A DNA stretch of 64,000 bases from an uncultured Clostridia bacterium (GCA_947627475.1 CANQWE010000003.1:1005-65004); one strand, 5' to 3'. Numbered from the stretch's first letter, positions 6,938 through 61,387 are shown. Translations and numbers: made by a program. Notes: a model not told the origin generated them from the sequence alone.

Positions 6938-6949
6938 AAAAACGACAAC

Positions 6950-45740: not shown

Positions 45741-45782
45741 GAGGAAAAAGAATAGCCCCGCTGAAAACTTTCAACGGGGCTA
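45741..45782 (-). terminator. Minus-strand intrinsic terminator just outside the left inverted repeat
   Basis: Minus strand reads TAGCCCCG-TTGAAAGTTTTCAG-CGGGGCTA followed by TTCTTTTTCC. Confidence 0.6.
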
Positions 45783-45807: not shown

Positions 45808-45833
45808 TCCCATCGCAGAGTTGACTCATCTAA
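45808..45833. repeat. Left inverted repeat (IR-L), 26 bp
   Basis: TCCCATCGCAGAGTTGACTCATCTAA. Its exact reverse complement is at 47323..47348. Confidence 0.95.
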
Positions 45834-45871
45834 GAGACGATTTTGCACAGCATTTTGCTTATATTTACCGT

Positions 45872-45900
45872 ATTATAACACGATTTAGAAAAAATTGCAA
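45872..45900 (-). promoter_or_regulatory. Outward (leftward) sigma-A-type promoter inside the segment
   Basis: Minus strand has TTGCAA (45900..45895), a 17-nt spacer ending in TGT, then TATAAT (45877..45872), 39 nt from IR-L. Confidence 0.55.
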
Positions 45901-45998
45901 GGAAATTCGTATAAAAATTTTTAAAAAAGTGTGTTTTCTTGTACGTTGAACCGTCTGTACAACCGTCAAATTTATGCTTAATGAAAGGAGACTACGCA

Positions 45999-47102
45999 AT
46001 GTCAAAACGAGGAGAGAATATTTACAAGCGCAAGGACGGCCGGTGGGAGGGCCGGTATGTGAAAAGTCGGGACTCCAGTGGCCGGCCGCGTCTAGGCTAT
46101 GTTTACGGAAAAACTTATCGGGAGACAAAGGAAAAATTATGGAAAGAAAAGATGCAGCCATCCAGCTGCTCCAGCAGCCGCAATCTGTTTTCCCGATACT
46201 GCGACGAATGGCTGCTTCTACGCAGAAATTGCGTGAAACCGTCCACATATATAAAATATCATGGAATGATAAACAGGCAAATTAAGCCCACCCTGGGAAA
46301 GGTGTCCCTACAGCATATGAGCACCGTTTTGGCAGAGGAGTTCAGCCACTCTCTGCTAACAGAGAAAGGGCTTTCTCCGAAAACAGTAAAAGATATCCTT
46401 GTGGTTTTACGCGCCGTTTTACAGCACGCCAAGCGGCAGACGGGAGAGCATTTTCAGATGGAGGTAGTATATCCTAAGGAAAGCAAAAAAGAGATGCGGG
46501 TCATGTCCCTGGAAGAGCAGAAAAGACTTACGGCTTTTTTGCTGCGCGATCCAAGTCCGGATCAATTTGGAATTATGTTGGCTCTCCTTACGGGGATGCG
46601 CATCGGAGAGGTGTGTGCCCTGCGTTGGCGGGATATCTGTTTGGATACCGGAGAAATCCGTGTCCGGGCGACGATGCAGCGGCTGCAAAAATTAGAGCCT
46701 GTGGACGGAAAAAGGACGGAGATCGTGGTAGGAGAGGCAAAAAGCTATGCTTCCTGCCGAACAATTCCGCTGACGGGTACTGCTTTGCAGCTCTGTGGGA
46801 AAATGCGGATGGGCGATCCGAATGCTTTCGTTTTGACCGCCAGGGCAGATCGCTTTATGGAACCCAGAGCCTTGCAATACCGCTTAAAAAAATATACAAA
46901 GGCCTGCGGAATATCCGACATTCACTTCCATACTTTACGGCATACCTTTGCAACCCGCTGTGTTGAAGTGGATTTTGAAGTTAAATCTCTGTCAGAAATA
47001 CTGGGCCATGCAAGCGCCAAGGTCACATTGGACCGGTATGTCCATTCTTCTATAGAATTGAAAAGAAAAAATATGAAAAAATTAGCGGCAGCAGGGTTAT
47101 AA
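45999..47102 (+). CDS. Tyrosine site-specific recombinase (phage-integrase family)
   Basis: N-terminal IYKRKDGRWEGRY arm-type DNA-binding module. Catalytic GMRIGEVCALRWRD (R), HTLRHTFATR (HxxR) and GHASAKVTLDRYVH (H..Y). RBS AAAGGAGA. Confidence 0.9.
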   Translation: MSKRGENIYKRKDGRWEGRYVKSRDSSGRPRLGYVYGKTYRETKEKLWKEKMQPSSCSSSRNLFSRYCDEWLLLRRNCVKPSTYIKYHGMINRQIKPTLGKVSLQHMSTVLAEEFSHSLLTEKGLSPKTVKDILVVLRAVLQHAKRQTGEHFQMEVVYPKESKKEMRVMSLEEQKRLTAFLLRDPSPDQFGIMLALLTGMRIGEVCALRWRDICLDTGEIRVRATMQRLQKLEPVDGKRTEIVVGEAKSYASCRTIPLTGTALQLCGKMRMGDPNAFVLTARADRFMEPRALQYRLKKYTKACGISDIHFHTLRHTFATRCVEVDFEVKSLSEILGHASAKVTLDRYVHSSIELKRKNMKKLAAAGL

Positions 47103-47163
47103 AGACTATTTTTGTGCCGTCAAAATAGGCCGTCAAATTTCTGGAAAAAAAGGAGATTCATGC

Positions 47164-47192
47164 TTGAAAAATAATTTGATGCATGTTATAAT
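47164..47192 (+). promoter_or_regulatory. Outward (rightward) sigma-A-type promoter inside the segment
   Basis: TTGAAA (47164..47169), a 17-nt spacer ending in TGT, then TATAAT (47187..47192), 131 nt from IR-R. It points into the fibre operon. Confidence 0.6.
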
Positions 47193-47322
47193 AATAAAGA
47201 ATATAGGCAGAAGACAATAGATCGTCTCTTGCAGTGCTTTTCCAGAAGCGTTTTGCAGTGCGAGAGCAGAGGGGAATTGTTTGGCTCCTGCTTTTCGGCA
47301 GTAACGTGCGGTTGATCCTGTG

Positions 47323-47348
47323 TTAGATGAGTCAACTCTGCGATGGGA
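47323..47348. repeat. Right inverted repeat (IR-R), 26 bp
   Basis: TTAGATGAGTCAACTCTGCGATGGGA is the exact reverse complement of 45808..45833. Confidence 0.95.
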
Positions 47349-47446: not shown

Positions 47447-48286
47447 ATGGAAACGCAGCAGAAAAAGAATCCGATAAAAGCTGCCATTGTCTTGCTGGCA
47501 GTTTTGCTTGGACTCAGTATTATTGCGCTGGTCGGCCTGCTGTTTTATACGCATTTTGCAGACGGTAAGCCTGCTTCTGCAGCCGTACCCGGCAATGTAA
47601 TCGCCACGTCGGCACAGGCCGGCCGGGGCTCCTTGACACAGCTTGCCGCTGTGCCGCTGGCAGCAGATAATATTGCGGCGCAGCGCGCCGCGGCAACCAA
47701 TGCTGCAGCGCAGTCGGGCACGCAGATATCTGAAGAGGCGAAAGCAAAAGCGCAAATGCTGGAACTGTATAAGGGCCATGGGGCGGATACCGTTCCCTTT
47801 GCAGTGGATAACCTGTTCCCGGGAGATACTATTACCCAGTATTATGGCGTGAAAATTTCCCACAAAGAGGATGTGGACCTGCTCTTTCGTCCCGACGTAA
47901 CAGAAGAGACAAAGGCGCTTGGCGGCGTGCTGCATATAAAAGTTGCCAATATGGAAACGGGTGAAGTACTGTTCGACGGTAAATTTGCAGAGGCAGATGG
48001 GAAAGAAGTTTCCCAAACGATTGCAGCAAACGATGCAGAAGAAAGCATTTCCTACTTTGAGGTTACTGTATCCCTGGACCAGTCCGTAGGCAACGAATAC
48101 CAGGCAGCCAGACTGCTGGCAGATTTTCATTGGTATGCTGCCCAGGAAGAGGGTTTGATCCGCCCGCCCCAGACGGGGGACATCTTTATGATCCTGCTGG
48201 GGACCGTTATCGCAGTATCGGCAGCTTTGCTGACATTGCTTGTAGTGTATAAACGCAGAAAGGAGGGCGGGAACCGTGTCCGGTAA
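47447..48286 (+). CDS. PQTG-motif cell-wall-anchored protein with TasA-like core motif
   Basis: N-terminal signal/TM segment and an FPGDTITQYYGVKISHKEDVDLLF motif. C-terminal RPPQTG + hydrophobic segment + KRRKEGG. Paralogous in layout to 5367..6035. Confidence 0.75.
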   Translation: METQQKKNPIKAAIVLLAVLLGLSIIALVGLLFYTHFADGKPASAAVPGNVIATSAQAGRGSLTQLAAVPLAADNIAAQRAAATNAAAQSGTQISEEAKAKAQMLELYKGHGADTVPFAVDNLFPGDTITQYYGVKISHKEDVDLLFRPDVTEETKALGGVLHIKVANMETGEVLFDGKFAEADGKEVSQTIAANDAEESISYFEVTVSLDQSVGNEYQAARLLADFHWYAAQEEGLIRPPQTGDIFMILLGTVIAVSAALLTLLVVYKRRKEGGNRVR

Positions 48287-48824
48287 AAGATCCTCGAAAA
48301 AACAGCTGACCAGAGGGATTGCGGCGATTGCGGTTCTTGCTGTTTGCCTTTGTGTCACAACCCTTGCCCTGGTTTATTCTATGGTGTCCGTAGAGGGCAA
48401 CCTGTTCCAGACCGGAACCATTGCAATCAACTTAAACGATGGGAAACCGGTGATCGAAGAAAATGAATTTTTGTTTGAACCGGGGATGACGGTAGAGAAG
48501 ACCTTCTTTATAGAAAATACCGGAACATGGGATGTGTATTACAAACTTTATCTGGAAAATCTAGAGGGTGGCCTTGCAGATGTGCTGGAGGTATCTGTGC
48601 GTGACAAGGATACCACACTCTTTAGCGGACAGGCGTCCGATTTCACCAAAGAGAAAGCAGACGCGGCGACAGAGCTTCTTGCGTTGGGCGAGCATCGGGA
48701 ACTTACCATGACGTTCCATTTTCCACAGGACGCGTCCAACAATACGGAAAATCTGTCTCTATCCTTTGATTTGCGGGCCGACGCAGTACAGGCAAAGAAC
48801 AATCCCGATAAATTGTTTGAGTAA
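48276..48824 (+). CDS. TasA/camelysin-like secreted protein (short form)
   Basis: GTG start after AAGGAGGG. The signal peptide ends ..LALVYSMVSVEGN. EPGMTVEKTFFIENTGTWDVYYKLY motif. Confidence 0.75.
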   Translation: MSGKRSSKKQLTRGIAAIAVLAVCLCVTTLALVYSMVSVEGNLFQTGTIAINLNDGKPVIEENEFLFEPGMTVEKTFFIENTGTWDVYYKLYLENLEGGLADVLEVSVRDKDTTLFSGQASDFTKEKADAATELLALGEHRELTMTFHFPQDASNNTENLSLSFDLRADAVQAKNNPDKLFE

Positions 48825-48862
48825 TTTTTGAAGATTTGTTTTTTTACAGATCTTGCTTATTT

Positions 48863-49059
48863 GGAGGTTTCTTATGAAACATGCACAAATGGAAAAAAAT
48901 TCCAGCGGGGGGGGGCTTTCAAACCCTGCAGTTAGGTAAATTGTCTGATTCCCCGGAAAAGGGTACAGAATAAATAGATGCGCTCCGGTTTTGGCGGCAT
49001 TTTCGGGGGCATCTTGTCCTGGAAAAGCCGACAAAATACATAAGGAGCGTGTCAGAAAA
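48863..49059 (+). repeat. Conserved leader module, copy A
   Basis: AGGAGGTTTC, ATG mini-ORF, G9, TTAGG..CCT hairpin, AGATGC..CTCCGG/CGGGGG..GCATCT hairpin, GCCGACAAAATA and the RBS. It aligns with copies B, D and E. Confidence 0.8.
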
Positions 49060-50613
49060 ATGACAACAAAGAAAAACACGAAACGCGCACTGCTCACCAG
49101 CGTGATGGCTACCGTGCTGTGTGCGGCAATGTTAATCGGCACCACCTTTGCATGGTTTACCGACAGCGTAGCCAGCGGGAAAAACAAGATCGTCGCTGGG
49201 AATCTGGATATTGATCTGGAATACAGCACCGATGGCGCAAACTGGAACGAGGTTGATGCCGACACCAATCTGTTCAAGCCTACCGAGGGCGTGGCCCTTT
49301 GGGAGCCCGGTCACACGGAATATGTCTATCTTCGGGTAAGCAACGCCGGCTCCCTGGCATTGAAATATCAGTTGGCCGTCAATGTATTTGGCGATGAGAA
49401 CGGCGGCGCGGAAAAAGAGTATACCAACAAAGAAGGCGGCAAGTTTCAACTCTCCGACTATCTGGTGTTTAGCCAGACGGATGGAGCAGCATCTGTAACC
49501 AAGCGGGAAGATTTGTGGATAAAAGACGCTGCTGCTGAAAAAGCAGCTATGGGCAAGCTGGACGGAGTCGGTATGACAGATATTCTGCTCTCCGGCGAAA
49601 ATAACGTCCTGACGCTGGCGGTATATATGCCGACACAGGTAGGAAACGAAGCAAATCAGCTCACCTTTGCAAAAGAAACGGAAGGCGAGCCTACCGTTTA
49701 TCTTGGCCTGACACTAAACGCTACCCAGACGCCGGAAGAGGAAGACAGCTTTGGCAAGACGTATGACGAGGGCGCATGGAGCGATTTTGAAAAGCAGCAG
49801 CATTTGGAGGATTTGTTAGAGGAAGGCTATGTTCCGGTTGAATCCAACAGCGCATTTACGGAAGCAACAAAAACAGAAGAGAAAATCGTAGTAACGAATG
49901 ACCTTGTTGTGGATCAAAACACACCAAGCATACAGGGAAGCACCACTATTGACTTTAACTATGGGCAGGTAACCCGCGTAACGGCCAGTGGCAACGGCTT
50001 GCTTGTTCAAAATTACGCTGCGGATATCACCCTGCAAAATGCCAATTTTGTCAGTGTAAAAGGCGGTGTGGTTGTCCGGGTTGAGGGCGCCAATCATTTA
50101 ACCGTGAAAAACAGCAATTTTATATGCGAAGCTGACGGGTCTACCGGAAATAAGATTTTTCAGTTGACGCCTTCAGAAGCAGATAAAAAAATGACTGTGA
50201 CTTTTGAAAACTGTGTTTTCGACACAGGATATGTTGCCTTTGAGGGATATAACAATATTACGGAATATGACGTTCGCTTTATAAACTGTAAATTCTTATG
50301 GGATGATAAAAATGGCAGCAGCTTTGTACAGGCCGGCAGCTATGCAAAGGGAAGTTACAGCTTTGAAGGGTGTACCTTTGCGTATACAAATTGGTGGAGC
50401 GGTCCGCTGGTACGGGTGAATAATCCAAACGCCCAAAGCAGCGTTACACTTCAGGATATAACGGTGAACGGTTCCGGCAGCAAAAAGCCGTATGTGGTAA
50501 GCGGATTCTCTGTTGTCGGCAAAAGAAATCTGACGGTAACTTCCACGGGAACAAATCAGTATTCTTACAATGACAGCATACTGGACTGGGAAACCGTTGC
50601 GGCAGAGAAGTAA
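49060..50613 (+). CDS. TasA-like N-terminal domain fused to right-handed beta-helix (PbH1-type) C-terminal domain
   Basis: MTTKKNTKRALLTSVMATVLCAAMLIGTTFAWFTDSV is a SipW-type signal. The C-terminal half has periodic ..NANF.., KNSNF, ENCVF, INCKF and EGCTF repeats typical of parallel beta-helix. Confidence 0.8.
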   Translation: MTTKKNTKRALLTSVMATVLCAAMLIGTTFAWFTDSVASGKNKIVAGNLDIDLEYSTDGANWNEVDADTNLFKPTEGVALWEPGHTEYVYLRVSNAGSLALKYQLAVNVFGDENGGAEKEYTNKEGGKFQLSDYLVFSQTDGAASVTKREDLWIKDAAAEKAAMGKLDGVGMTDILLSGENNVLTLAVYMPTQVGNEANQLTFAKETEGEPTVYLGLTLNATQTPEEEDSFGKTYDEGAWSDFEKQQHLEDLLEEGYVPVESNSAFTEATKTEEKIVVTNDLVVDQNTPSIQGSTTIDFNYGQVTRVTASGNGLLVQNYAADITLQNANFVSVKGGVVVRVEGANHLTVKNSNFICEADGSTGNKIFQLTPSEADKKMTVTFENCVFDTGYVAFEGYNNITEYDVRFINCKFLWDDKNGSSFVQAGSYAKGSYSFEGCTFAYTNWWSGPLVRVNNPNAQSSVTLQDITVNGSGSKKPYVVSGFSVVGKRNLTVTSTGTNQYSYNDSILDWETVAAEK

Positions 50614-50723
50614 TACATCCTTGTCCTCTCCCTCCGGTGAGGGAGAGGCAATCTAAGGGCATAAGCTATGGTTTGTGCCTTTGGATTGCCTGCGTGGAAC
50701 AACATATACGAAGGAGACTTTCC

Positions 50724-51503
50724 ATGAAAAAAGCACTCCATATTGCAAAAAACGTACTGACATGGCTTATTGTAGTCCTGGCGGTATGTATGATGATTTT
50801 TACCATTGTATCCAGTATGACCTTTAATCGCGTAGACCGGGACCTCTTCGGATATAAGGCGTTTATCGTTCTGTCCGACTCTATGAGCGCAACGGATTTT
50901 GACGCAGGAGATTTGGTGCTGGTAAAGGAAGTAGATCCGGAAACCCTAAAGGCTGGCGACATCATCGCGTATCAGTCCACCAATACGGAAAACTACGGCG
51001 AGGTGGTCACCCATAAGATCCGGGAGCTGACCACCGATGCCCAGGGTAATCCCGGGTTCGTTACATACGGCACGACGACGGATCAGAACGACGAGAACGT
51101 AGTCACCTACGACTTTGTACTCGGGAAGTATCAAAAGAACCTGCCGGGGGTGGGAGCGTTCTTTCAGTTTTTAAAAACCACACCCGGATATATCGTCTGT
51201 ATTTTTCTCCCGTTCCTGGCGCTGATCCTCATACAGGGGATCAACAGCATCCGACTGTTCCGCCGGTATAAAAAGGAACAGCTGGAGGAAATCGAGGCCC
51301 AGCGGGAACAGCAGAAGCTGGAGCTGGAAGAAGAGCGGGAACGCCTTGCCCGGCAGCAGGCTGAGTCTCAGAAAATGATGGCGGAGCTGATGAAATTGAA
51401 AAACGAACTGTCTGGGGAGGCGACCCCGGCAGAACCGGAAAAACCACTTCAGGAAGAATCGGCGGCAGAAAAGGACTTGGAAAAAGATACAGGCGGCCAA
51501 TAG
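50724..51503 (+). CDS. sipW: Signal peptidase I, SipW (archaeal/ER) type, with extended charged C-terminal tail
   Basis: N-terminal TM segment, IVLSDSMSATDFDAGDLVLV (Ser box), VVTHKI (His box) and a C-terminal TM. A coiled-coil-like tail of about 85 aa follows (KKEQLEEIEAQREQQKLELEEERERLARQQ..). Confidence 0.85.
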   Translation: MKKALHIAKNVLTWLIVVLAVCMMIFTIVSSMTFNRVDRDLFGYKAFIVLSDSMSATDFDAGDLVLVKEVDPETLKAGDIIAYQSTNTENYGEVVTHKIRELTTDAQGNPGFVTYGTTTDQNDENVVTYDFVLGKYQKNLPGVGAFFQFLKTTPGYIVCIFLPFLALILIQGINSIRLFRRYKKEQLEEIEAQREQQKLELEEERERLARQQAESQKMMAELMKLKNELSGEATPAEPEKPLQEESAAEKDLEKDTGGQ

Positions 51504-51597
51504 GCCGATGGTATTGTAAAAGAAGGGTCCATAGAGAGCGGCTGGTGGATGCCTTTATGAAACGGCGTGTTTACTGTAAAATAAAAAAATATTTCCT

Positions 51598-51879
51598 GTA
51601 CATCCCCTTTGTGGGGGTGCGGGGATCCAAGGGCATAGATTTGTTGTGCCCCTGGATCCCCGAAGTCGGGAATCCACAGGAGGTTTCATTATTATGAAAC
51701 ATGTACAAATGGTAAAATATTCCATCGGGGGGGGGTGCCGATCCCCACAATTAGGCGATTTGCCTAAGCTTCTGGGGAAAGGGTTTATAGCAAAATAGAC
51801 GCGCTCCGATTTTGGCGGCATTTATCGGAGACGTCTTGTCCCGGGAAAGGCCGACAAAATATTAAAGGAGTAGAGAGAA
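51598..51879 (+). repeat. Conserved leader module, copy B
   Basis: Hairpin 1 CATCCCC..GGGGGTG, hairpin 2 GGGGATCCAAGGGCA..TGCCCCTGGATCCCC, AGGAGGTTTC, mini-ORF, G9 and the AGACG..CTCCGAT/ATCGGAG..CGTCT hairpin. Confidence 0.85.
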
Positions 51880-53282
51880 ATGACAACAAAGAAAAGCACA
51901 AAGAGCGCACTGCTGTCCAGTGTGCTGGCTACAGTTCTGTGCGTGGCCATGCTCGTTGGAACAACCTTTGCATGGTTTACAGACAGCGTAACAAGCGGGA
52001 AAATAAAATCGTCGCAGGTAATCTGGACGTAGAGCTGGTTGACGCACAGGGAAATTCCCTGGAAGGGGAAGTGCTGGGCTGGAAAGCATTTGACAATCGG
52101 GAGCAGGAGCAGATCCTGTGGGAGCCTGGCTGTACCTATAATACAGAGGAATTTTACATTAAAAATGACGGCAGCCTAAATCTAAAATTTAAGTTTGCAG
52201 TTTCCGGTATCCAAGGAGACGCGAAGTTGCTGGAGGTTATTGACTTCACCGCTATGGCTGATACAAGCTGGTTCAAGTTTAATACCGGTGCCGTTTCTAT
52301 ATCCCCTGAAAGCAGCGAATTTGACCTTTTGAAGGGTTGTGATATTGATACGCTGTTTTACGGTAAGATGCACTTTGACGAATATACTCTTGCGCCTGGG
52401 CAGACAGTTGGTCCGATCACCCTGACCGGTCATATGCAGGAAGAAGCGGGGAACGAGTATCAGGGCCTGTCTATCGATGGCATCGCCATTACGCTGATTG
52501 CCACACAGGCAACGGGTGAGGAAGACAGCTTCAATGGTACATATGACAAGGATGCCAAATTTCCTATAGCCGGAACGGAAGAAGAATTGCAGACACTGTT
52601 GAAAGCGGCGCAGCCTGGTGATACAGTAACGATCGATTCAGAATTTACAGGAAATGTTGTTGTTCCGGAGGGGCTGCAGGACGTAACGATTGCCTCCATG
52701 AACGCGCAGGTAAATAAAATCGAGATAAAAGCCGACGGAATCGACAATGTTACTTTTGACGGATTTGAATTTGACCAGGTAACGGGAAATGCAATCGAGC
52801 TGGCAGGGGAAGCTGCAATCGGTACAGTTACGTTTAAGGATTGCCATATAACTGGTACAGGTGTGAAAAGCGGAAGAGGCTTTTCCGGTGCGAACCAAAA
52901 TACAGAGTTGGTTTTTGAAAATTGCTTCTTTACCGATATTGGATATCCAATCTATGATGCGTTTGGCGGATATAAGAGTTTGACGGTTCGCGGATGTACT
53001 TTTAGCAACAGTGCCGCTGCAGGTTCAAAGTCCTGGGCCATGATGGTGCAGGGTGCATTGGATACTGTGGTAATTGATGGTTGTACCTTTAACGGATGCA
53101 CCGATGGTATTTTAAAAATGACTGGGGGCTGTGCTACATCCTTTACATTCACAAATAACACTATGATCAATTGCAGCGCCCATGATCCATATGGTTTGTT
53201 CCAAATGAAATTTGGTGAAACTTGTGTAAAAAATGCTTCCAATAACACATTTGACGGGGAAGACTTTCCCTTTGATTTTTAA
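51880..53282 (+). pseudogene. TasA-like/beta-helix paralog with a 1-nt frameshift just after the signal peptide
   Basis: The ATG at 51880 gives MTTKKSTKSALLSSVLATVLCVAMLVGTTFAWFTDSVTSGKIKSSQVIWT*. The mature part (NKIVAGNLDVELVD.. to 53282) is intact in the +1 frame. Compared with paralogs, GGGAAAAACAAGATC has become GGGAAAATAAAATC. Confidence 0.75.
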
Positions 53283-53524
53283 AATAAATTTTGTGGTCTC
53301 TCCCGCAGGGGAGAAGAGATAATCTAAGGGTAAGACAAATGTGTTCATTGCCGGAAGACAGGTATATCCTGTAACCCCCTAAAAATTTAAACAGGCTCCT
53401 CACCGAAACGGTGAGGGGCGATCCAAGGGCATAACGATAGGTCGGATGTGCCTTTGGATCGCCGTATTGGCAGCAACATCCTGCAGTTGTTGCAGGAATG
53501 AGATAAATTGAGGAGAAATTTGCG
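53283..53524 (+). repeat. Divergent leader, copy C (hairpin pairs only)
   Basis: A degenerate pair (TCTCTCCCGCAGGGGAGA; ATAATCTAAGGGTAAG..) is followed by an intact pair (CCTCACCGAAACGGTGAGG; CGATCCAAGGGCA..TGCCTTTGGATCG). It lacks the G-tract module. Confidence 0.6.
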
Positions 53525-55111
53525 ATGTCACAAAGAAAACATACAAAGAAAGCCCTGATCACCGCAGCTGTATCGATCGGTCTGTGCATAGCGATGCTTT
53601 TTGGAACAACATTGGCGTGGTTTTCTGACAATAGTGCCGGCAGCAGAAATAAATTCGTGGCAGGCAATTTGGATGTGGCGCTTTATAATACCACTGGGGA
53701 TACGGAAGCATTGGTCCATCCCGATGCCCCTTTATTCGGCACAGCTGCCCGGTGGGAGCCCGGTCAGGTAAAATATGTGAACCTGCGCGTGGACAATACG
53801 GGAACGCTGGCGCTGAAATATCAGTTAGGCATTCGCATTGCCGAGGAAAAAGGCAGTATAAATGTGTTTGGCGAGAAATTTTTTCTCTCTGACTTTATGC
53901 ATTATGCAGTTGTTCCTGGCAAACAAATGTATACCGACGACGAAGCAGGAAGGCAAACGGCCATTGCTGCGGCAGAGCAAGCGGGAGCAGCGCCTATATC
54001 TCAAAGCCCCTTGTCCCAGGACGGATTCCTGTGCGCAAAGGGACAGGATACCGATACGGCTTCCAGTAAAAATGAGATGACATTGATCGTTTATATGGTG
54101 CAGGATAATGAAAACCGGGCCAACGTAAGAAAGGGAGAGGAAGAGCCCGTTCTTGACTTGGGTGTGACACTGTCTGCGACCCAAGCCCCCAGCGAACAGG
54201 ACAGCTTTGATGATGGCTATGACCAAGACGCAGGCATTGTCGCAGTTACGCCGGAAACGGCACAGGCAGCGCTGGACGCGGCGGATTTTGGGGAAACACT
54301 GTACCTTGCACCTGGAAACTACGGAACTTTGTATCTGGATCAGGCAAAGGAAACCAGCCTTGTAAGGGACAGACAGTACTCCCGTACCTTGGAAAATGTG
54401 TCTATTGTGGGCCAGGCCGGCGTTATAATAGACGGAATTCAGTTCAAAACCGGCCATATTTACGGAGAAGGTACAAACCCGGTGAATGGACAGCCGTTGA
54501 ATGGGACTGCAAATTCCTATTACAGCACGCTGCATATCAAGAATCTTACCATAGAAAAAGTAGCGCTGACAAAGTCTATTTATATTGGTGCAGATACCTC
54601 TTCCTTCCTGAACCTGGATGGGCTTACCGTACGGGATTGTTCCTATACCGGTACAGACCGTACGCACAATGATAAGACCAATAAACTGCTGCATATAGCA
54701 GGCGGCGAAAACTATATGAGAAATATTCTTGTGGAAAACTGCACTGTACATACTGCTTTCCAGGGGATATATACTTACGGAAACCGAGATATCGTTGTGC
54801 GCGGATGCACCTTTGATAATTTGGGTCACAACGCTGTTGCCATTCAGGATGCCTCTCCGGATCAGGGAGCTACGATTTATAATGGCGGGACAATTCTGAT
54901 TGAAGGCAATAAGATTTCTCAGGTATCCGACCGGGTTTTCCGGGTTGGAAATTTTCGGGAAGGATCTATCCGATTTGTGAATAACAGTATTACTGCGTCC
55001 GGTGATGCAAGTGACTCTGCAAACCCGATTTATAAAGCAACGTCTGTGGCTGCCGGCGCTGAGGTTTCCTTCACAGGAAATACAGTGGACGGAGCAGAAT
55101 GGGCTGGCTGA
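53525..55111 (+). CDS. TasA-like N-terminal domain fused to beta-helix C-terminal domain (divergent paralog)
   Basis: MSQRKHTKKALITAAVSIGLCIAMLFGTTLAWFSDNS. C-terminal repeats VRDCSY, VENCTV and VRGCTF. Confidence 0.8.
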   Translation: MSQRKHTKKALITAAVSIGLCIAMLFGTTLAWFSDNSAGSRNKFVAGNLDVALYNTTGDTEALVHPDAPLFGTAARWEPGQVKYVNLRVDNTGTLALKYQLGIRIAEEKGSINVFGEKFFLSDFMHYAVVPGKQMYTDDEAGRQTAIAAAEQAGAAPISQSPLSQDGFLCAKGQDTDTASSKNEMTLIVYMVQDNENRANVRKGEEEPVLDLGVTLSATQAPSEQDSFDDGYDQDAGIVAVTPETAQAALDAADFGETLYLAPGNYGTLYLDQAKETSLVRDRQYSRTLENVSIVGQAGVIIDGIQFKTGHIYGEGTNPVNGQPLNGTANSYYSTLHIKNLTIEKVALTKSIYIGADTSSFLNLDGLTVRDCSYTGTDRTHNDKTNKLLHIAGGENYMRNILVENCTVHTAFQGIYTYGNRDIVVRGCTFDNLGHNAVAIQDASPDQGATIYNGGTILIEGNKISQVSDRVFRVGNFREGSIRFVNNSITASGDASDSANPIYKATSVAAGAEVSFTGNTVDGAEWAG

Positions 55112-55407
55112 TCGATCTTTTTCCGCCTCTCTCCGGAGGGGCGGGGATCCAAGGGCATAACAAAGACAGGGTTTGTGCCCTTGGATCCCTGAAGCCGGGA
55201 TAACATAGGAGGTTTCTTATGAAATTTGCACAAATGGTAAAAATTTCCAACGGGGGGGGGCTGTCCATTCCCAATGTTAGGCACTTTGCCTGATTTTTTG
55301 GGAAAGAACGTCATAGCAAAATAGATGCGCTTTGGTTGTATCGGCATTTTCCAAAGGCATCTGATCCGGAAAACGTCGACGATATTACTAAAGGAGCGTG
55401 TCAGAAA
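55112..55407 (+). repeat. Conserved leader module, copy D
   Basis: Hairpin 1, perfect hairpin 2 GGGATCCAAGGGC/GCCCTTGGATCCC (55144..55189), mini-ORF, G9 (55252..55260) and the hairpin AGATGC..CTTTGG/CCAAAG..GCATCT. Confidence 0.85.
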
Positions 55408-57252
55408 ATGACAACAAAGAAAAGTACGAAACGCGCACTGCTGTCCAGTGTTCTGGCTACCGTGCTGTGCGCAGCAATGCTGATCGGTACGACCTTTGCA
55501 TGGTTTACCGACAGCGTGACATCCGGCAAAAACAAGATAGTTGCTGGGAATCTGGATATAGAGCTGTACCAGGTCGAGGGTAGCACGGAAACCCCTGTGA
55601 CAGCAGATACCAATCTGTTCCGGGAGGATGCGCTGTGGGAGCCTGGACATGTAGAGGTAGTCACTTTGAAGATGGCCAACCTGGGCACACTGGCATTGGA
55701 ATATGCGCTGGATATATCCATTGCAAATGAAACAGCCGGCACAAATGCAGCCGGAGATCCTTTCCGGCTTTCTGATTATATTCAGTTCGCTGCTGTTGAC
55801 GGGAACAATACATATGCAACCCGAGAACAGGCGATTGCGGCCGCAGAGGCAGCCGGCTCCACACCTATTTCCCAGTTGGCAGCGGGGAAAAGCGGCGTAC
55901 TGTATCCTGCAGACAAAGCCACTGCTGAAAATCCTGCATTGGAATATGTTACGCTGATCGTTTATATGCCCGAGACTGTCGGAAACGAAGCCAACTACAA
56001 AACCGGCACGACTGCGCCCACCATTGATATGGGTATTTCCCTGCTGGCTACACAGACGCCCTATGAGGCAGACAGCTTTGATCAGAAGTATGACGATAAA
56101 GCCGGCGAACTGAATTTCACAGAGCCTGGGGACTATACGGTTGACCTGGACGAGACACCCGCATACGGCAACGGCGATTATGGCGTAATCCAGGCGCAAA
56201 AGGATGTAACAGTCAATATTACCGGCAGCGGTGCGGTCAAGGCGCAGGAAAGTTCGGACAAATATGCAATGGCCGTGGCCGCGTATGAGGGAGGCACTGT
56301 CAATATCTATGGCGGTACCTATACACAGGAAATTACCGGTTCAGATGAACAGTATGACATGATTTATGCTGCGTACGGCGGAAATATCAATATTTACGGC
56401 GGTACCTTTAAGAGCGTCACACCCAAGTGGACATTGAACGTCCGGGACGCGGATTACCAGAGCGGCGCGTCAAAAATTACTGTGTACGGAGGGACCTTCT
56501 ATAAATATAACCCGGCCCAGAGCGATACAGAACCCGGCGGCCCAGTGAGCTATGTTGCAGACGGCTACACTGTTATACAAAACGGGGATTGGTATACTGT
56601 AGTAAAAGCAGCAGTTGACAGCGCAGAGGCGCTAAAAGACGCAATTGCAAGTGCAAATGACGGGGATACCATCGTTCTGACGAAGGACATAGAGCTGACT
56701 ACATCCGCGCGTACCATCGATAAAAACATTACCTTCGACGCCCAGGGGAATACAATTTCCGGTGTACCCATGTATATTGGCAGTACAAACAATGTCACCG
56801 TGAAGAATGCCGTGTTTGACAACGCGAAGGGAACGAAGGAATCCTGTGTTTATGTAAATAATACCAGCGGCATAAATGTTTTTGAAAACTGCGTGTTTGA
56901 AAATACCAATTGGGATGTCATTCAAATGACCGGCAACATTGAAGGGGCACAGCTGGTTGTCAACAACTGTACTTTTGCCAATGCTGCACAGCGGTATATC
57001 CATGTGGAAGCTTTGGAAAACGGCAGTCCGGATTATAATACAAATGTAAAAGTTACCATTACCAATAACACATTTGGGCAAAATCCTACCGGCAATGATG
57101 CAATTGGTCTGTATTACATAGCTGACGCAGGTATTACTGCATATAACAATACATTTGCATCAGAAGAACCTACAATATATATCTGCAGCGCATCCATTTC
57201 TCCGTCCATTTCTCAGGAGGACGCCATCGCGATGTTTACTGCAAAAAAGTAA
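55408..57252 (+). CDS. TasA-like N-terminal domain fused to beta-helix C-terminal domain
   Basis: MTTKKSTKRALLSSVLATVLCAAMLIGTTFAWFTDSV. C-terminal repeats ENCVF and NNCTF, plus IYGGT repeats. Confidence 0.8.
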   Translation: MTTKKSTKRALLSSVLATVLCAAMLIGTTFAWFTDSVTSGKNKIVAGNLDIELYQVEGSTETPVTADTNLFREDALWEPGHVEVVTLKMANLGTLALEYALDISIANETAGTNAAGDPFRLSDYIQFAAVDGNNTYATREQAIAAAEAAGSTPISQLAAGKSGVLYPADKATAENPALEYVTLIVYMPETVGNEANYKTGTTAPTIDMGISLLATQTPYEADSFDQKYDDKAGELNFTEPGDYTVDLDETPAYGNGDYGVIQAQKDVTVNITGSGAVKAQESSDKYAMAVAAYEGGTVNIYGGTYTQEITGSDEQYDMIYAAYGGNINIYGGTFKSVTPKWTLNVRDADYQSGASKITVYGGTFYKYNPAQSDTEPGGPVSYVADGYTVIQNGDWYTVVKAAVDSAEALKDAIASANDGDTIVLTKDIELTTSARTIDKNITFDAQGNTISGVPMYIGSTNNVTVKNAVFDNAKGTKESCVYVNNTSGINVFENCVFENTNWDVIQMTGNIEGAQLVVNNCTFANAAQRYIHVEALENGSPDYNTNVKVTITNNTFGQNPTGNDAIGLYYIADAGITAYNNTFASEEPTIYICSASISPSISQEDAIAMFTAKK

Positions 57253-57555
57253 GCGGCTTGAAAATCTGACCCGCATCCCCCTATAGGGGATGCAGGGATC
57301 CAAGGGCATAGATTTGTTGTGCCTTTGGATCCCCGAAGGCGGGAAAACACAGGAGGTTTCATTGTTATGAAACATGTACAAATGGTAAAAATTTCCAACG
57401 GGGGGGGGGCTGTCAATCCCCACAGTTAGGCAAATTGCCTGATCTACCGGGGAAATGTTACAAAGTACAATAGATGCACTCCGATTTTGACGGCATTTTT
57501 CGGAGGCGTCTTGTCCCGGAAAAAGCCGACAAAATACCATAAAAGGAGTGTCAAA
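57253..57555 (+). repeat. Conserved leader module, copy E
   Basis: Hairpin 1 GCATCCCC-CTATA-GGGGATGC, hairpin 2 (57295..57333), mini-ORF, G10 (57400..57409) and the hairpin AGATGC..CTCCGA/TCGGAG..GCGTCT. Confidence 0.85.
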
Positions 57556-59022
57556 ATGACGACAAGGAAAAGTACGAAACGCGCACTGCTGTCCAGTGTT
57601 CTGGCTACCGTGCTGTGCGCAGCAATGCTGATCGGTACGACCTTTGCATGGTTTACCGACAGTGTAATCAGTGGGAAAAATCGGATTGTCGCGGGAAACC
57701 TGGACGTAGATCTTATAATGGATAAGCTGGACGGAGAAGGGTACGTAAGTATCGCCGACGGAGAGGGAGACATTTTTCAGGAAGCGGACGTTGCGCAGAA
57801 TAGCAACGCCACCCTTTGGGAGCCCGGCAAAACGCAAATTGTGTATCTTGGCGTGCAAAATAAGGGAAGCCTTGCACTGAAATACAATATTTTGCTGCAG
57901 GTGACGGATGGCGGTCTAATTGGTTCTTTGGAATACGCTGTAATTGATGGAATCAAGGCTGCAGATTTAACAGCGGCAAACTGGACAGAGTTGAAAGCGG
58001 CTGCATCCAGCACCGGTGATATTGCTGCCGGTAGCATGATCGCTGCACCAAACGGCTGCCTGGATGAGATTGTAAACGGACAGGCAAATGAAACCGATTA
58101 TTTTGCCTTGGCGGTACATATGAAGGAAGAAGCCGGCAATCAGTACCAGGCCAAAGACATTACTATTGATCTGACGGTAGTCGCAACCCAGGCTACAGCA
58201 GAGAGTGACAGCTTTGACAATCAATATGACAAGGAAGCGCCGTTGGATTTTGTTCCGGTTGCAAACGCAGATGAACTGCAAAATGCCATCGATGCGGGAA
58301 AGGCCGTTTCACTCACAGCGCCTGTGGAATTGGAAGGCGCTTTGCAGGCAACCGGCGATGTTACGATTAACGGAAACGGAAATGCGCTTACCATCCCCAG
58401 TGGTACCGACCGTGTGATCAATATTACCGGGACAGAGAATCCTGTTACCATTGCTTTGTCCAATGTAGATATTCAGGGCCCCACTACCGGGTCATACACA
58501 AGAGGTATTTCTATCTATGACGCGAAAAAAGTGAAGCTGGTTATGGACAATTGTTCTCTCTCTGCCAACTACTACGCCCTCAATGTGGCAAGCGCAAGCG
58601 ATGAGGCAGAGGTTGTAATTCGTAATTCCACATTATCCGGATGGTGTGCCTTCCAGACACATTCTCCCAACGCAAATGTGACATTTGAAAACTGCACATT
58701 GGTTGGATTGAACGATAAGGGATATAATGCAGAGGGCTGGAATGATTTTGCAACGGTTGTAATAAACGAATTTAGTGAAGGCAATCCCGATCCAGAGGGA
58801 GCCCACGATGGCACCTTTACATTTAAAAATTGCCGGATTGAAGCCAATCAGACTACAGGGAACAAACAATATTTTCTGTCTGTCAGAGCAAAAAATACCA
58901 CATTAATTGCTGAAAACTGTACTTTTTATGTTGATGGAGAAAGAATCAGTCAGGACAAAGTGCCCGACTATGTTGCGGTTTATCCGGAAGTAATGGAGAG
59001 TTTTCAGTTTACATTACGGTAA
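57556..59022 (+). CDS. TasA-like N-terminal domain fused to beta-helix C-terminal domain
   Basis: MTTRKSTKRALLSSVLATVLCAAMLIGTTFAWFTDSV. C-terminal repeats MDNCSL, RNSTL, ENCTL, KNCRI and ENCTF. Confidence 0.8.
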   Translation: MTTRKSTKRALLSSVLATVLCAAMLIGTTFAWFTDSVISGKNRIVAGNLDVDLIMDKLDGEGYVSIADGEGDIFQEADVAQNSNATLWEPGKTQIVYLGVQNKGSLALKYNILLQVTDGGLIGSLEYAVIDGIKAADLTAANWTELKAAASSTGDIAAGSMIAAPNGCLDEIVNGQANETDYFALAVHMKEEAGNQYQAKDITIDLTVVATQATAESDSFDNQYDKEAPLDFVPVANADELQNAIDAGKAVSLTAPVELEGALQATGDVTINGNGNALTIPSGTDRVINITGTENPVTIALSNVDIQGPTTGSYTRGISIYDAKKVKLVMDNCSLSANYYALNVASASDEAEVVIRNSTLSGWCAFQTHSPNANVTFENCTLVGLNDKGYNAEGWNDFATVVINEFSEGNPDPEGAHDGTFTFKNCRIEANQTTGNKQYFLSVRAKNTTLIAENCTFYVDGERISQDKVPDYVAVYPEVMESFQFTLR

Positions 59023-59201
59023 TGGATGGAAGACATAGGATTTTTAATATATAGAAGTCTGCAAGTTACACCATCCATAGGAGTTAAAATCTACGACAAA
59101 TATTCCCAAGCCTCTATAGAGGCTTGGGAGGCAATCAAAGGGTATAATATCCATTGTGTCCTTTGATTGCCTTGACGCTGGCGGAAAGGGGAGCAAATAC
59201 A

Positions 59202-59945
59202 TTGAGAAACTTATTGAAATTCCGAACCAAAGAGAAACCTACTGATGATAATATCATGCGGCTGATCCTGCCCACTGTTTGGGGGATCGTTCTCTGCATG
59301 GCTTGTTTGTGCGGCACCACCTGGGCGTGGTTTTCCGGAGTAATGGCATCCGGTACAGCTACCGTGCAGGCGGCGAACTATGCGGTCAGTGCAAAGGTGA
59401 CCGACGCATCCGGTACAGAGGTGTCTGCGCAGAGAAACGATACATTTACACTGGCCGCGGAAAAAAGCTATACAGTGGAACTTACTGTAGTGGGAACAGT
59501 CGAGAAAACTGCCGGCTACTGCAGGGTCACCTATCAGGATAAGCAGTATTATACTGGTGCCATGGAAAAAGGCGATACAATACAGTTTTCTGTGTCTGCC
59601 GGAGCAGAAGGAGGCACACTGTCTGTTTTGGGCCTTTGGGGAACTTACAGCGGAGAGGTCACGCTGTCGGCGGGGAATACCATTATGGGCAGAACCGGAA
59701 CGAATCAGGTTCCTTCCAATAGCGAACCTGCCATGTCTGCAGATACATCAGCAGATACCCCGCAAGCCGAGGTGACAACGGCTGACACGGAAAAAGACGA
59801 GACGGGCACAGAGGAGACGTCAGCGCCTGTAGATGAAACCACCCAGGCACCGGAAGATACAACCGGTACTTCTCAAGAAACTACCGGAGCAGAGGAAGAC
59901 ACCACCCAGACAGAACCCTTAGGCGAGACAACATCCATACAATAA
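59202..59945 (+). CDS. Small SipW-type-signal protein with acidic Thr/Glu-rich tail
   Basis: ..ILPTVWGIVLCMACLCGTTWAWFSGVMAS junction. The C-terminal 70 aa are low-complexity T/E/D-rich. The start is uncertain: TTG 59202 after GGGGAG, or ATG 59256. Confidence 0.6.
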   Translation: MRNLLKFRTKEKPTDDNIMRLILPTVWGIVLCMACLCGTTWAWFSGVMASGTATVQAANYAVSAKVTDASGTEVSAQRNDTFTLAAEKSYTVELTVVGTVEKTAGYCRVTYQDKQYYTGAMEKGDTIQFSVSAGAEGGTLSVLGLWGTYSGEVTLSAGNTIMGRTGTNQVPSNSEPAMSADTSADTPQAEVTTADTEKDETGTEETSAPVDETTQAPEDTTGTSQETTGAEEDTTQTEPLGETTSIQ

Positions 59946-59979
59946 AAAAGCAGACCGGTTGCAGCCGGTCTGCTTTTTT
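59944..59979. terminator. Bidirectional intrinsic terminator ending the fibre operon
   Basis: AAAAAAGCAGACCGG-TTGCAG-CCGGTCTGCTTTTTT. Confidence 0.85.
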
Positions 59980-59998: not shown

Positions 59999-61387
59999 TC
60001 AAATGGTCACATCGCAGCACTGAAAGTCGGAGTCAATATTGTTGGCGAAAACTCTTACCCTAAAGTTGCGCTGATTGCACATTGCTGTGGGAGATCCGCC
60101 GGAAACATCCAGGTCCTCAGGCAGGACAAACTTAATACATTTTACCAGCACGTCCCGGCATGTGGGATATTGGTGTGCTGGTACTGTCAGGGTTTTCATC
60201 CCCCGCGGGTGTTCTCCGCCCTGATCGTCAATTTCTGTAAGCACAACAGCCAGCGCAACCCGGCGATTCGGGCAAACATTTCGAACATTCACATCTACCT
60301 GAAGAATTCTGCCCAGGGACTCCAGATACGTGTCTCCCAGGTCATAAATCACCGAGTCCTGGCATCCGTTTATTTCAAGATCTACTGGGGTAGGACAGGG
60401 CTCCGGCCGTACCACGATCCCACAGTCCACTTCTACGGTGGGGGCGGGGAAGTTGGCTTGGTTCATCTCATCATCTGTATAGGTGATAGATGCATTGACC
60501 AGCTTGGTGCCGGATGTGTCGGCAACGTGCCGGATGAGAAATTCCAGCGTGGCGCCTTCTCCCGCGGTAGTTCCCAGCTCGTCTATGGTCCACCTTAACG
60601 TGTTTGTGCTCACAAGGTTGGCGCTTCCCTTGGTAGGTGCCAGAATACTGGTAATCACAAAATCCGGGTTCACCACTTCGTCAATAACAATGTTGGTGGC
60701 GCCCGGGTTGGAGATGTTTGCTGCCAGATCCGCAAACAAATCCTCCAGGGCCGCTTCATCCGGTGTGATGGCTACATGAGAGGTGTCTGGGTCGGTGGCC
60801 CATTCGTTCAGTTCTGCCGGATCGATCCCATCTGCCCCGATAAGCCCGATACAGTATATGGTGATCCCCGCTGCTCTGGCGGCAGCCGCCACAGGATTCG
60901 GGTTGGGTCCGGCGGTGGTTTTTCCATCGGTGAACATGACGATCACCTTTGCATTGGTAGAGGCCGGGTCAAACAGTGCCGTCGCCTGCGCAAATGCATC
61001 GGCGTGATTGGTAGAACCCCCTGCGCTCAGACTGTTTACCGCAGCCTTCAGGGTAGCCACAGATGTGATCAGCTGTGTGTTCTGCACGGCGGTATCTGCA
61101 AAGCTCACAATGCCGATCCGGCTGCCGGAGCCGATGTTGCCGTCAGGGGCGCCGTCCGTAGCCTCGTCGATGATATCGATAAACGTATTCGCTCCTGACT
61201 TCATGTTGGCGAGGGGAGTGCCTGCCATACTGCCGGAACGGTCCAAAATCAGAACGATATCTGTGGGATTGCTGCTGATATCCGGGGACGCGGCCAAGGC
61301 CAAGGTAACCCGCAGAGAACCGTAGCAGTCAATTTGATTTGTGCTAATGGTTTTATTTGCATTGGTAAGTCCCATTTTGCTTTCCAT
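59999..61387 (-). CDS. VWA-domain protein with DUF11-like repeat and Cys-rich C-terminal domain, no signal peptide
   Basis: MIDAS LILDRSGSM..., TDG. A central NIVIDEVVNPDFV...TLRWTI..L segment looks like a conserved repeat domain. The last 150 aa contain 10 Cys and end FQCCDVTI. The start may be the ATG at 61375. Confidence 0.7.
   Translation of the reverse strand: MESKMGLTNANKTISTNQIDCYGSLRVTLALAASPDISSNPTDIVLILDRSGSMAGTPLANMKSGANTFIDIIDEATDGAPDGNIGSGSRIGIVSFADTAVQNTQLITSVATLKAAVNSLSAGGSTNHADAFAQATALFDPASTNAKVIVMFTDGKTTAGPNPNPVAAAARAAGITIYCIGLIGADGIDPAELNEWATDPDTSHVAITPDEAALEDLFADLAANISNPGATNIVIDEVVNPDFVITSILAPTKGSANLVSTNTLRWTIDELGTTAGEGATLEFLIRHVADTSGTKLVNASITYTDDEMNQANFPAPTVEVDCGIVVRPEPCPTPVDLEINGCQDSVIYDLGDTYLESLGRILQVDVNVRNVCPNRRVALAVVLTEIDDQGGEHPRGMKTLTVPAHQYPTCRDVLVKCIKFVLPEDLDVSGGSPTAMCNQRNFRVRVFANNIDSDFQCCDVTI

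Follow-up and report, generated by a model that had tools for sequence, protein, structure and literature searches.

TasA-type fibres are known as single-domain scaffolds of Bacillus biofilms and are also found as archaeal pili. Which surface structure is made by an operon in which a SipW-type signal peptidase stands among five large TasA-like proteins with divergent C-terminal domains, and how is it varied? We addressed this question on a stretch of 64,000 nucleotides from an uncultured Clostridia bacterium (GCA_947627475.1, CANQWE010000003.1:1005-65004), hereafter the window, in which such an operon occupies positions 47447-59945 (Table 1). The answer that we favour, and to which we give about an even chance, is a phase-variable operon for a SipW-processed surface fibre of the TasA family in an uncultured gut member of the Oscillospirales, a fibre that would be wall-anchored, assembled by donor strands and fitted with interchangeable adhesin-like heads.

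The open reading frame (ORF) survey of the window recovered nine genes in this interval, in the order gene 1, gene 2, P3, signal peptidase, P5, P6, P7, P8 and P9, and all long ORFs of consequence were on the plus strand. Genes 1 and 2 overlap by 11 nt, the peptidase gene is surrounded by eight genes whose products have leader sequences of the SipW type or related to it, and the last stop codon is followed by a GC-rich hairpin of 9 bp between A6 and T6. The original prediction had described a single plus-strand block, operon-like and closed by a strong terminator at 59944, and both the ORF coordinates and the terminator read from the sequence agreed with it. Its components were also recovered: the PQTG-anchored protein, the short TasA-like protein and the SipW-type peptidase passed the models TIGR01167, PF12389 and TIGR02228, respectively, and the five larger paralogs of 488-614 residues were all found, P5 being the one described as frameshifted. 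The same arrangement (gene 1, gene 2, sipW, several large paralogs and a P9-like gene) was present in Anaeromassilibacillus, UMGS856, Blautia celeris and other metagenome-assembled genomes (MAGs). The nearest relatives of the operon proteins were those of Anaeromassilibacillus, and the FeoB protein of the window had its best match, at 85% identity, among uncultured Oscillospirales Clostridia.

The large paralogs share a near-invariant signal peptide, followed by an N-terminal domain of about 235 residues that ends with ATQxxxExDSFxxxYD and beyond which the sequences diverge. Gene 2, P3, P6, P7 and P8 matched PF12389 (Peptidase_M73/camelysin-TasA) above its gathering score of 22.5 bits; gene 1 and P9 had no match, nor did P5 as found, because the frameshift cuts off its N-terminus. 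The model of the SipW-dependent-type signal peptide (TIGR04088, cut-off 19 bits) was passed by P3, P6 and P7, with P8 just under it (17.7 bits). The N-terminal segment FAWFTDSV.SGKN.IVAGNLD resembles the donor strand of TasA, and the motif FAWFTDSV..GNLD is the most conserved part of these proteins. The resemblance to TasA was visible by fold comparison. With the AlphaFold monomer model of P7 as a query, the TasA fibre 8aur_A was the first Foldseek match (probability 1.00, E 2e-3, template modelling score, TM-score, 0.41 on the target), and with that of P8 it was the third (probability 1.00, E 6e-4). The match lists also contained the archaeal bundling pilus 7ueg, the donor-strand pilins CfaB and FimG, and the pilin domain of PapG. 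The P7 model was the better overall (predicted local distance difference test, pLDDT, 80.4; predicted TM-score 0.73), and that of P8 combined a weaker N-domain with a confident C-terminal beta-helix. In both, pLDDT values under 50 were obtained for the predicted donor-strand segment (around residues 26-44), which is the expectation for a strand in need of a partner. The almost invariant signal peptide and the TasA-like N-domains of the original prediction were thus supported by the alignment, by the PF12389 matches and SipW-type signal peptides, and by the two independent models, which suggest that the N-domain of the large paralogs is a TasA-like jellyroll.

The C-terminal domains are right-handed beta-helices in four of the five large paralogs, namely P5, P6 and P8, which matched PF13229 (gathering score 25.9 bits), and P7, by its model; the original prediction, which had extended this fold to all C-terminal halves, held for these four and not for P3. 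P8 also matched PF20585, weakly, and its modelled C-domain (pLDDT about 90) resembled tailspikes, a serine-rich repeat protein (SRRP) and pectate-lyase folds in Foldseek. The C-terminus of the P7 model consists of two stacks of short strands (pLDDT 85-95), and the matches that follow 8aur_A are enzymes with two beta-helices, from polysaccharide lyase (PL) family PL6 and glycoside hydrolase (GH) family GH55. Taken over P7 and P8, the fold matches of the C-domains included GH87, GH55, PL6, PL3, the lyase RbmB and a phage tailspike depolymerase, with TM-scores of 0.15-0.25. Several charged or aromatic residues of the P8 beta-helix are invariant across orthologs (D268, R286, Y314-G317, D331, E429 and R444). 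No catalytic GH or PL family of Pfam was detected at E ≤ 10 in any of the C-domains.

To see how common the fusion is, we considered a scan of the P7 N-domain against 1.84 billion representative proteins, with clusters defined at 50% identity. It retrieved 6,077 clusters at E ≤ 1e-3, including 1,474 at E ≤ 1e-30. Among the best 150 clusters, the N-domain was always N-terminal and 143 proteins were longer than 350 residues, the longest having 1,204. PF12389 was matched in 63 of 70 relatives, and their partner domains were Beta_helix (nine cases), BspA-type leucine-rich repeats (LRR), LRR_8, the Ig-like Big_2, Glug and the "adhesive domain" Pectate_lyase_5. No catalytic GH or PL family was found in these 70 proteins at E ≤ 1e-3, and the suggestion that the heads degrade glycans found no support, the result having been the same in the paralogs and the partner domains being of adhesin type. 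The original prediction had also not recognised the fusion of TasA with a beta-helix as one already described. Our literature search found no paper on it; however, the architecture is common and its members already bear generic NCBI names ("TasA family protein", "right-handed parallel beta-helix repeat-containing protein", "SipW-dependent-type signal peptide-containing protein"). It is therefore abundant and catalogued, without a functional description. The latest survey of the TasA superfamily kept only proteins of 100-350 residues (10.64898/2026.01.04.697558), a range that is exceeded by the large paralogs (467-614 residues) and into which only gene 2, with 182 residues, falls.

The other proteins of the operon suggest how such subunits could be exported, assembled and anchored. 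The product of gene 1 ends with PPQTGD, 20 hydrophobic residues and KRRKEGGNRVR, it passed the LPXTG-anchor model TIGR01167 (18.3 bits, cut-off 15.9), and its core could be aligned with the paralog N-domains (hhalign, 80% probability, E 1.4e-5). In five genomes its homologs all have the same kind of C-terminus, with [PS/N]P[QK]TGD, hydrophobic residues and a basic tail in this order, and this (S/P)PxTG motif class is that of clostridial SrtB substrates, as in C. difficile (PMC4155245). Judging from its sequence, gene 1 is a candidate for the wall-anchored end subunit. Gene 2 is always present in related operons and is their most conserved TasA-like protein, with 46-67% identity across the Anaeromassilibacillus, Blautia and MAG loci versus about 30-39% for the N-domains of the large paralogs. 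For this reason we propose it as a candidate shaft subunit. Its score against the BsaA family model was only 17.7 bits (cut-off 60).

The signal peptidase carries the SDSM and THK motifs in its translation and is 78% identical to its Anaeromassilibacillus homolog; it passed the archaeal/ER-type model TIGR02228 and stayed under the Bacillus SipW equivalog NF046067 (73.5 bits, cut-off 190). We also observed that its last 70 residues form a long, highly charged, coiled-coil-like tail (RRYKKEQLEEIEAQREQQKLELEEERERLARQQAESQKMM...), which is kept in the Anaeromassilibacillus homolog and lies beyond the matches to both models, which end at residues 171 (TIGR02228) and 197 (NF046067).

P9, counted from the TTG at 59154, could be aligned with the paralog N-domains over residues 2-48 only, i.e., the signal and the donor strand (hhalign, 95% probability), and its Anaeromassilibacillus homolog carries a LysM domain. 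TasA assembles by an N-terminal donor strand, and the N-terminal residues of TapA, which resemble this strand, have been proposed to supply the first one (PMC9674648). By analogy, P9 is a candidate TapA-like nucleator or cap.

From these data we infer the following course of fibre assembly and function of the heads. After cleavage by the peptidase, the subunits would polymerise by donor-strand exchange, as TasA does, with the conserved 182-residue product of gene 2 forming the shaft. Gene 1 would tie one end of the fibre to peptidoglycan via sortase, and P9 would give the first or the last donor strand, as TapA does. The large paralogs would enter the fibre as subunits and expose their C-terminal beta-helix heads on its outside, where these would act as modules for ligand binding; we read these heads as adhesin-like binders because the partner domains are of adhesin type and catalytic families are missing.

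Two other arrangements of the same proteins have to be weighed. Each large paralog could form its own homopolymeric, TasA-like matrix fibre, with gene 2 as a minor or accessory component comparable to CalY beside TasA in B. cereus. Every large paralog indeed combines a full TasA-like core with a donor-strand segment, the separate leaders described below, each with its own G tract, would fit the expression of one paralog at a time, and B. cereus makes TasA/CalY heterofilaments from paralogs (PMC13082335). We nevertheless hold this to be unlikely, since gene 2 is always present and far more conserved across genera than the paralog N-domains, and since partners of two kinds, one anchored by sortase and one with only the donor strand, point to a single organised fibre. 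It is still less probable, and in our opinion quite improbable, that no fibre is made and that the large paralogs act as monomeric carbohydrate-active enzymes or adhesins, secreted or associated with the wall, with the N-domain only as a SipW export tag and spacer. The enzyme folds among the Foldseek matches of the C-domains would agree with it, as would the invariant residues of the P8 beta-helix, which suggest a defined site. However, these enzyme-fold matches had low TM-scores, significant catalytic families were missing from the paralogs and from the 70 relatives, the most conserved part of the proteins is the donor-strand motif, and every related operon also contains genes for a minimal subunit, an anchor and a protein with only the donor strand.

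How, then, would the expression of the anchored, multi-subunit fibre be varied? Upstream of the operon, and outside the interval of the original prediction, we found a 1.5-kb invertible cassette (45808-47348), bounded by the inverted repeats IR-L and IR-R and containing a tyrosine recombinase gene as well as two promoter-like sites that point outward, P_L and P_R. P_R, the best such site in the region, faces gene 1 in the orientation of the window, and P_L faces a strong intrinsic terminator on the minus strand that would stop transcription from whichever cassette promoter faces left.

The cassette inverts in natural populations. The orientation of the window was found in nine other contigs of the species; in Logan contig L017, position 47348 is joined to the reverse complement of 45833-45625, which is the flipped junction. 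Contig L018 corresponds exactly to 45808-47348, from one inverted repeat to the other, and contigs L008 and L010, from different samples, both start at position 47323, precisely where the repeat core has its inner edge. We reason that joins and breaks of this kind require both orientations among the reads, because the core is shorter than the assembler k-mer and the flanking bases differ. This evidence is at the level of assemblies, the contigs having been located through their encoded proteins. An exact search for the repeat core in the GTDB representative genomes and JGI metagenomes gave no match, the species being absent from both sets. A 10-nt inverted repeat around P_R (47139-47148 and 47238-47247) was also considered as a switch and dropped, both because about 0.4 such pairs are expected by chance by our estimate and because the 34-nt repeats explain the flipped contigs. 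Between P_R and IR-R, positions 47222-47231 (ATCGTCTCTT) are the reverse complement of the inner end of IR-L; this copy may serve as an additional binding site for the recombinase, or may be due to chance.

Other switches precede homologous operons. Directly upstream of the operon of Anaeromassilibacillus sp. SJQ-5 and UMGS856 is a gene for a XerC/D-like recombinase, followed by inverted repeats of 24-31 nt around a 232-bp segment; this recombinase is not orthologous to that of the window (28% identity over 68 residues). In Blautia celeris, a perfect 26-nt inverted repeat surrounds 246 bp beside a XerC/D-like recombinase that is 55% identical. For the Anaeromassilibacillus-type switch, 11 of the 12 informative contigs had one orientation, and only L033, a metagenome contig of low coverage, was flipped. 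That switches of three designs stand before one and the same operon, depending on the genus, argues that switching is selected. In the L002 segment, the sole promoter-like site is weak (9/12) and points away from the operon. Our literature search found no paper linking an inverton to a TasA or SipW operon.

A second layer of variation may reside in the RNA between the genes. A leader of about 230 nt precedes P3, P5, P7 and P8 and folds far better than its shuffles (z = -6.5). In the consensus of eight distinct copies from the window, L012 and L040, 96% of the structure is paired. Both sides have changed in eight pairs, whereas shuffles gave 2.3 +/- 1.3 such pairs and slid controls 1-4. Each of the four leaders contains a poly-G tract inside a predicted helix of the 5' leader, and these tracts are the only runs of at least eight G or C in the 64 kb. 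Among assemblies that are 99-100% identical elsewhere, the tract has 8, 9 or 11 G in P3 and 8-10 in P5 and P8, and is constant (9) in P7; the tract is thus hypermutable. A role of the tract as a promoter spacer was rejected, as no promoter-like site spans it and a manual inspection found no conserved -35 or -10 element.

Every intergenic region downstream of P3 also contains a hairpin, GGxGAUCCAAGGGCA-loop-UGCCyyUGGAUCxCC (the GGGGAUCCAAGGGCA hairpins), mostly preceded by a short GC hairpin. Its copies differ by compensatory changes (GGGGAUCC/GGAUCCCC, GGCGAUCC/GGAUCGCC and GGCAAUCA/UGAUUGCC), no run of U follows them, and within the window the motif was not found outside the operon. These features suggest a processing or stabilising element rather than a terminator. 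Rfam had no family over the leaders or the hairpins, either at the gathering score or at E ≤ 1, and the leader is absent from related genera.

A short ORF preceded by a Shine-Dalgarno sequence (GGAGG, then ATG after 6-8 nt) crosses each of the four tracts (48863-48990, 51683-51810, 55208-55335 and 57356-57485). The length of the tract sets its end, either at an early stop or, in one frame of three, at a conserved TAG at the foot of the AGAUGCGCUCCGA...UCGGAGGCAUCU hairpin, and gene callers annotate it as 30-34 residues in other assemblies. It was kept as a leader peptide only as a possibility: one L040 copy has no ATG, which is replaced by a compensatory change of the hairpin. Since the start codon was lost there and the hairpin kept, we read the leader as an RNA structure.

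The set of paralogs itself differs between strains. P7 is missing from contigs L004 and L006, and in L006 the leader of P7 is joined to the body of P8, a junction that we interpret as the footprint of recombination between the repeated segments made of leader and signal peptide. L040, which is about 90% identical to the window, has the same recombinase, gene 1, gene 2 and sipW frame, with other paralogs (691, 522 and 614 residues) plus a frameshifted one, and a remnant of a P3-type gene, in which a leader is fused to a C-terminal beta-helix fragment (3601-4220). The frameshift of P5 in the window is a single 1-nt deletion (A5 to A4) in a homopolymer near 52000, and the gene is intact (467 residues) in three other assemblies of the species (L004, L006 and L008). 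An independent frameshift, at a G6 run, divides the P5-like paralog of L040 (11426-12836) into pieces of 71 and 409 residues; recurrent slippage or pseudogenisation of P5 is possible from these sequences. With the flipped state of the promoter cassette, the poly-G tracts of varying length and the gain and loss of paralogs between strains, the suggestion of a variable surface array gained strong support.

In the phase-variable fibre that we propose, inversion of the cassette would exchange P_R for P_L, with their respective 5' untranslated regions (UTRs), before the whole operon. The G8-G11 tracts in the leaders of P3, P5, P7 and P8 may tune individual paralogs, and recombination between the repeated leader and signal-peptide sequences may add and remove paralog cassettes.

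Several observations speak against this proposal as a whole. Concerning the proteins, the PF12389 matches cover mostly the first 50-90 residues (mainly positions 3-49 or 3-79 of the 196 of the model), the TM-scores to TasA 8aur_A are modest (0.35-0.41 on the target, with an rmsd of 9-12 Å), and searches of PDB sequences with P8 and with a P8-family profile gave no match to TasA and no solved structure. The C-domain of P3 had no Pfam match and showed only a weak rung-like motif of 44 residues, so that its beta-helix fold was not confirmed. The roles of shaft, anchor and nucleator or cap given to gene 2, gene 1 and P9 are drawn from domain logic, and no ORF of at least 120 residues with a TLxTC motif, as expected for a sortase, was present in the window, though the enzyme may be encoded elsewhere in the genome. 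Concerning regulation, strong promoter-like sites are present at both ends of the cassette, so that inversion may act on the level of expression or on the 5' UTR and not as an ON/OFF switch of the operon. The 5' UTRs of the two orientations differ, and their folding did not show a terminator specific to one of them. Finally, the differences in poly-G length could partly be homopolymer assembly errors, and in L040 the tract is interrupted with its helix kept, i.e., the tract itself is not conserved. That these regulatory extras have no function at all, the operon being transcribed either way, the leaders being duplicated spacers and the G-tract differences being noise or neutral slippage, would fit the equally good promoter-like sites, the interrupted tract, the restricted distribution of the leader and its absence from Rfam, but appears very improbable given the three non-homologous switches at the same place in different genera, the paired leader with its excess of double-sided changes over the controls, and the tracts that vary between otherwise near-identical samples as the only long G/C runs of the window.

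The closest known system is tapA-sipW-tasA of B. subtilis (8AUR). Both encode a dedicated archaeal-type peptidase among its substrates, SipW-type signal peptides and a subunit with an N-terminal donor-strand motif and a jellyroll fold, in the window a predicted one, and P9, like TapA, shares only the N-terminal strand. In contrast, TasA of B. subtilis is a single domain of 261 residues, whereas the large proteins of the window have 488-614 residues with C-terminal beta-helix domains; the window has five such paralogs plus a minimal subunit and a member with a sortase signal, an invertible cassette would take the place of SinR, and the peptidase is under the Bacillus SipW equivalog score. The sipW-tasA-calY (CapP) locus of B. 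cereus and the sipW-bsaA locus of C. perfringens also have paralogous SipW-dependent fibre subunits beside sipW. The former differs by being explicitly sortase-independent, unlike gene 1 with its sortase signal, and by its single-domain subunits, and the latter by the BsaA model, under whose cut-off gene 2 falls far.

The mechanism proposed here, with a donor-strand pilin-type domain joined to a binding domain, resembles that of the two-domain adhesin subunits FimH and PapG of chaperone-usher pili and that of archaeal donor-strand fibres, the AbpA bundling pili. This would be a likeness of mechanism and not of family: the operon has neither chaperone nor usher, its heads are C-terminal rather than N-terminal, and its subunits keep their own donor strand and need not sit only at the tip. 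The heads share the right-handed parallel beta-helix fold with the binding region of the L. reuteri SRRP (5NY0/5NXK), phage tailspikes and Pectate_lyase_5, although identity is about 10-12% and TM-scores are low, and they are fused to a TasA-like domain instead of a serine-rich stalk or a phage tail. As to the switch, fimS of E. coli (FimB/FimE), the capsule invertons of Bacteroides and cwpV/flgB of C. difficile similarly combine inverted repeats, a promoter segment, a tyrosine recombinase and a surface operon, with both orientations in natural samples (here at the level of assemblies). In the window, however, the recombinase gene lies inside the 1.5-kb segment, promoter-like sites are present at both ends and a terminator stands on the far flank.

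Surveys of invertons have mostly centred on Bacteroidota. The combination of a TasA/SipW fibre system with an inverton is not described in the literature that we searched, and neither is a modular, sortase-anchored design with multiple paralogs. It appears that the TasA module serves varied adhesin-like heads as a handle for polymerisation and anchoring, in gut commensals that are abundant and little studied (Oscillospiraceae, Ruminococcaceae and Lachnospiraceae): about 6,000 clusters have the N-domain, the closest of them are mostly fused, and the length filter of the latest survey left the fused forms out. If this is true, Gram-positive anaerobes would use a new route of surface adhesion, a large block of hypothetical proteins named "TasA family" or "beta-helix repeat" would be accounted for, and the operon would give a concrete and testable example of phase variation at several layers in Clostridia. 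As to RNA, the structured leader and the hairpins between the genes are candidates for a new cis-regulatory or processing element. A bolder generalisation, which we consider rather unlikely, is a third, so far undescribed class of Gram-positive pilus in gut Clostridia, distinct from sortase and type IV pili. It would consist of a sortase-anchored, SipW-processed shaft, assembled by donor-strand exchange from conserved minimal subunits of the gene 2 type and carrying interchangeable adhesin subunits in which TasA is fused to beta-helix, LRR or Ig domains, with a repertoire varied in combination by inverton, poly-G tracts of a new leader RNA and cassette recombination, and would comprise thousands of uncharacterised proteins of the human gut microbiome.

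Table 1. Features of the operon and of its upstream cassette, by position in the window (other contigs where named).
Feature	Position	Strand	Description
Intrinsic terminator just outside IR-L	45753..45782	-	13-bp stem, then TTCTTTTTCC
Left inverted repeat, IR-L	45808..45841		34 nt, 91% complementary to 47315-47348; perfect 26-nt core TCCCATCGCAGAGTTGACTCATCTAA
Promoter-like site P_L, outward	45872..45900	-	TTGCAA, 17 nt, TGnTATAAT; 10/12 consensus, extended -10; consensus match only
Tyrosine recombinase, inside cassette	45999..47102	+	367 residues; Phage_int_SAM_3 and Phage_integrase (precomputed Pfam)
Promoter-like site P_R, outward	47164..47192	+	TTGAAA, 17 nt, TGnTATAAT; 11/12
Right inverted repeat, IR-R	47315..47348		Pairs with IR-L
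Gene 1	47447..48286	+	279 residues; N-terminal membrane segment, Ala-rich low-complexity linker, TasA-like core, PPQTGD sorting signal
Gene 2	48276..48824	+	182 residues; minimal TasA-like subunit; PF12389 32.2 bits
Structured leader upstream of P3	48850..49059	+	Poly-G 48907-48915
P3	49060..50613	+	517 residues; TasA-like N-domain, 277-residue C-domain; PF12389 23.1 bits, TIGR04088 23.5 bits
Double hairpin, first copy	50630..50691	+	Before the peptidase gene; repeat families D6, D9
SipW-like (archaeal/ER-type) signal peptidase I	50721..51503	+	260 residues; TIGR02228 70.5 bits, cut-off 51.85
Double hairpin and structured leader upstream of P5	51604..51879	+	Poly-G 51727-51735
P5	51880..53282	+	467 residues if repaired; TasA-like N-domain and beta-helix; PF13229 52.1 bits
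Double hairpin upstream of P6	53400..53464	+	No long leader, no G tract
P6	53525..55111	+	528 residues; TasA-like N-domain and beta-helix; PF12389 25.7 bits, TIGR04088 19.8 bits, PF13229 36.7 bits
Double hairpin and structured leader upstream of P7	55126..55407	+	Poly-G 55252-55260
P7	55408..57252	+	614 residues; TasA-like N-domain, then two beta-solenoid domains (AlphaFold and Foldseek); PF12389 23.9 bits, TIGR04088 28.6 bits
Double hairpin and structured leader upstream of P8	57277..57555	+	Poly-G 57400-57409; folding z-score -6.5
P8	57556..59022	+	488 residues; TasA-like N-domain and beta-helix; PF12389 25.4 bits, PF13229 about 30 bits (29.6-31.8)
Variant hairpin upstream of P9	59129..59172	+	Compensatory changes GGCAAUCAAAGGG...CCUUUGAUUGCC; inverted repeat I5
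P9	59154..59945	+	263 residues; SipW-type signal peptide, donor-strand-like segment, small beta domain, Thr/Glu-rich tail
Bidirectional intrinsic terminator, operon end	59944..59979		GCAGACCGG-TTGCAG-CCGGTCTGC, then TTTTTT, from the sequence itself; stem arms listed as AAAAAAGCAGACCGG-TTGCAG-CCGGTCTGCTTTTTT
Short switch segments in homologous operons	L002 8171-8450; L019 8698-8991; L025 5647-5944; L033 1-51		

Beyond the right end of the operon, a convergent gene on the minus strand (59999-61387) encodes a protein of 462 residues with an N-terminal VWA domain, and the bidirectional terminator is common to this gene and to the operon. In related contigs, the VWA protein has a precomputed match to the CsxB family at its C-terminus, and in L040 the gene is broken into fragments. 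On the other side, to the left of the cassette and some 350 nt from it, a c-di-GMP-I riboswitch is located on the minus strand (45381-45462; 60.6 bits, gathering score 35), with a promoter-like site at 45497-45469 on the same strand, and is separated from the left-facing promoter by the terminator at 45782-45753. Downstream of it are an ORF of 69 residues and a gene for a PAS-GGDEF-EAL protein of 1,287 residues (41165-45028), an arrangement in which c-di-GMP signalling is possibly linked to the fibre switch. A TPP (thiamine pyrophosphate) riboswitch on the plus strand (6947-7052; 58.1 bits, gathering score 54.3) has no relation to the operon.

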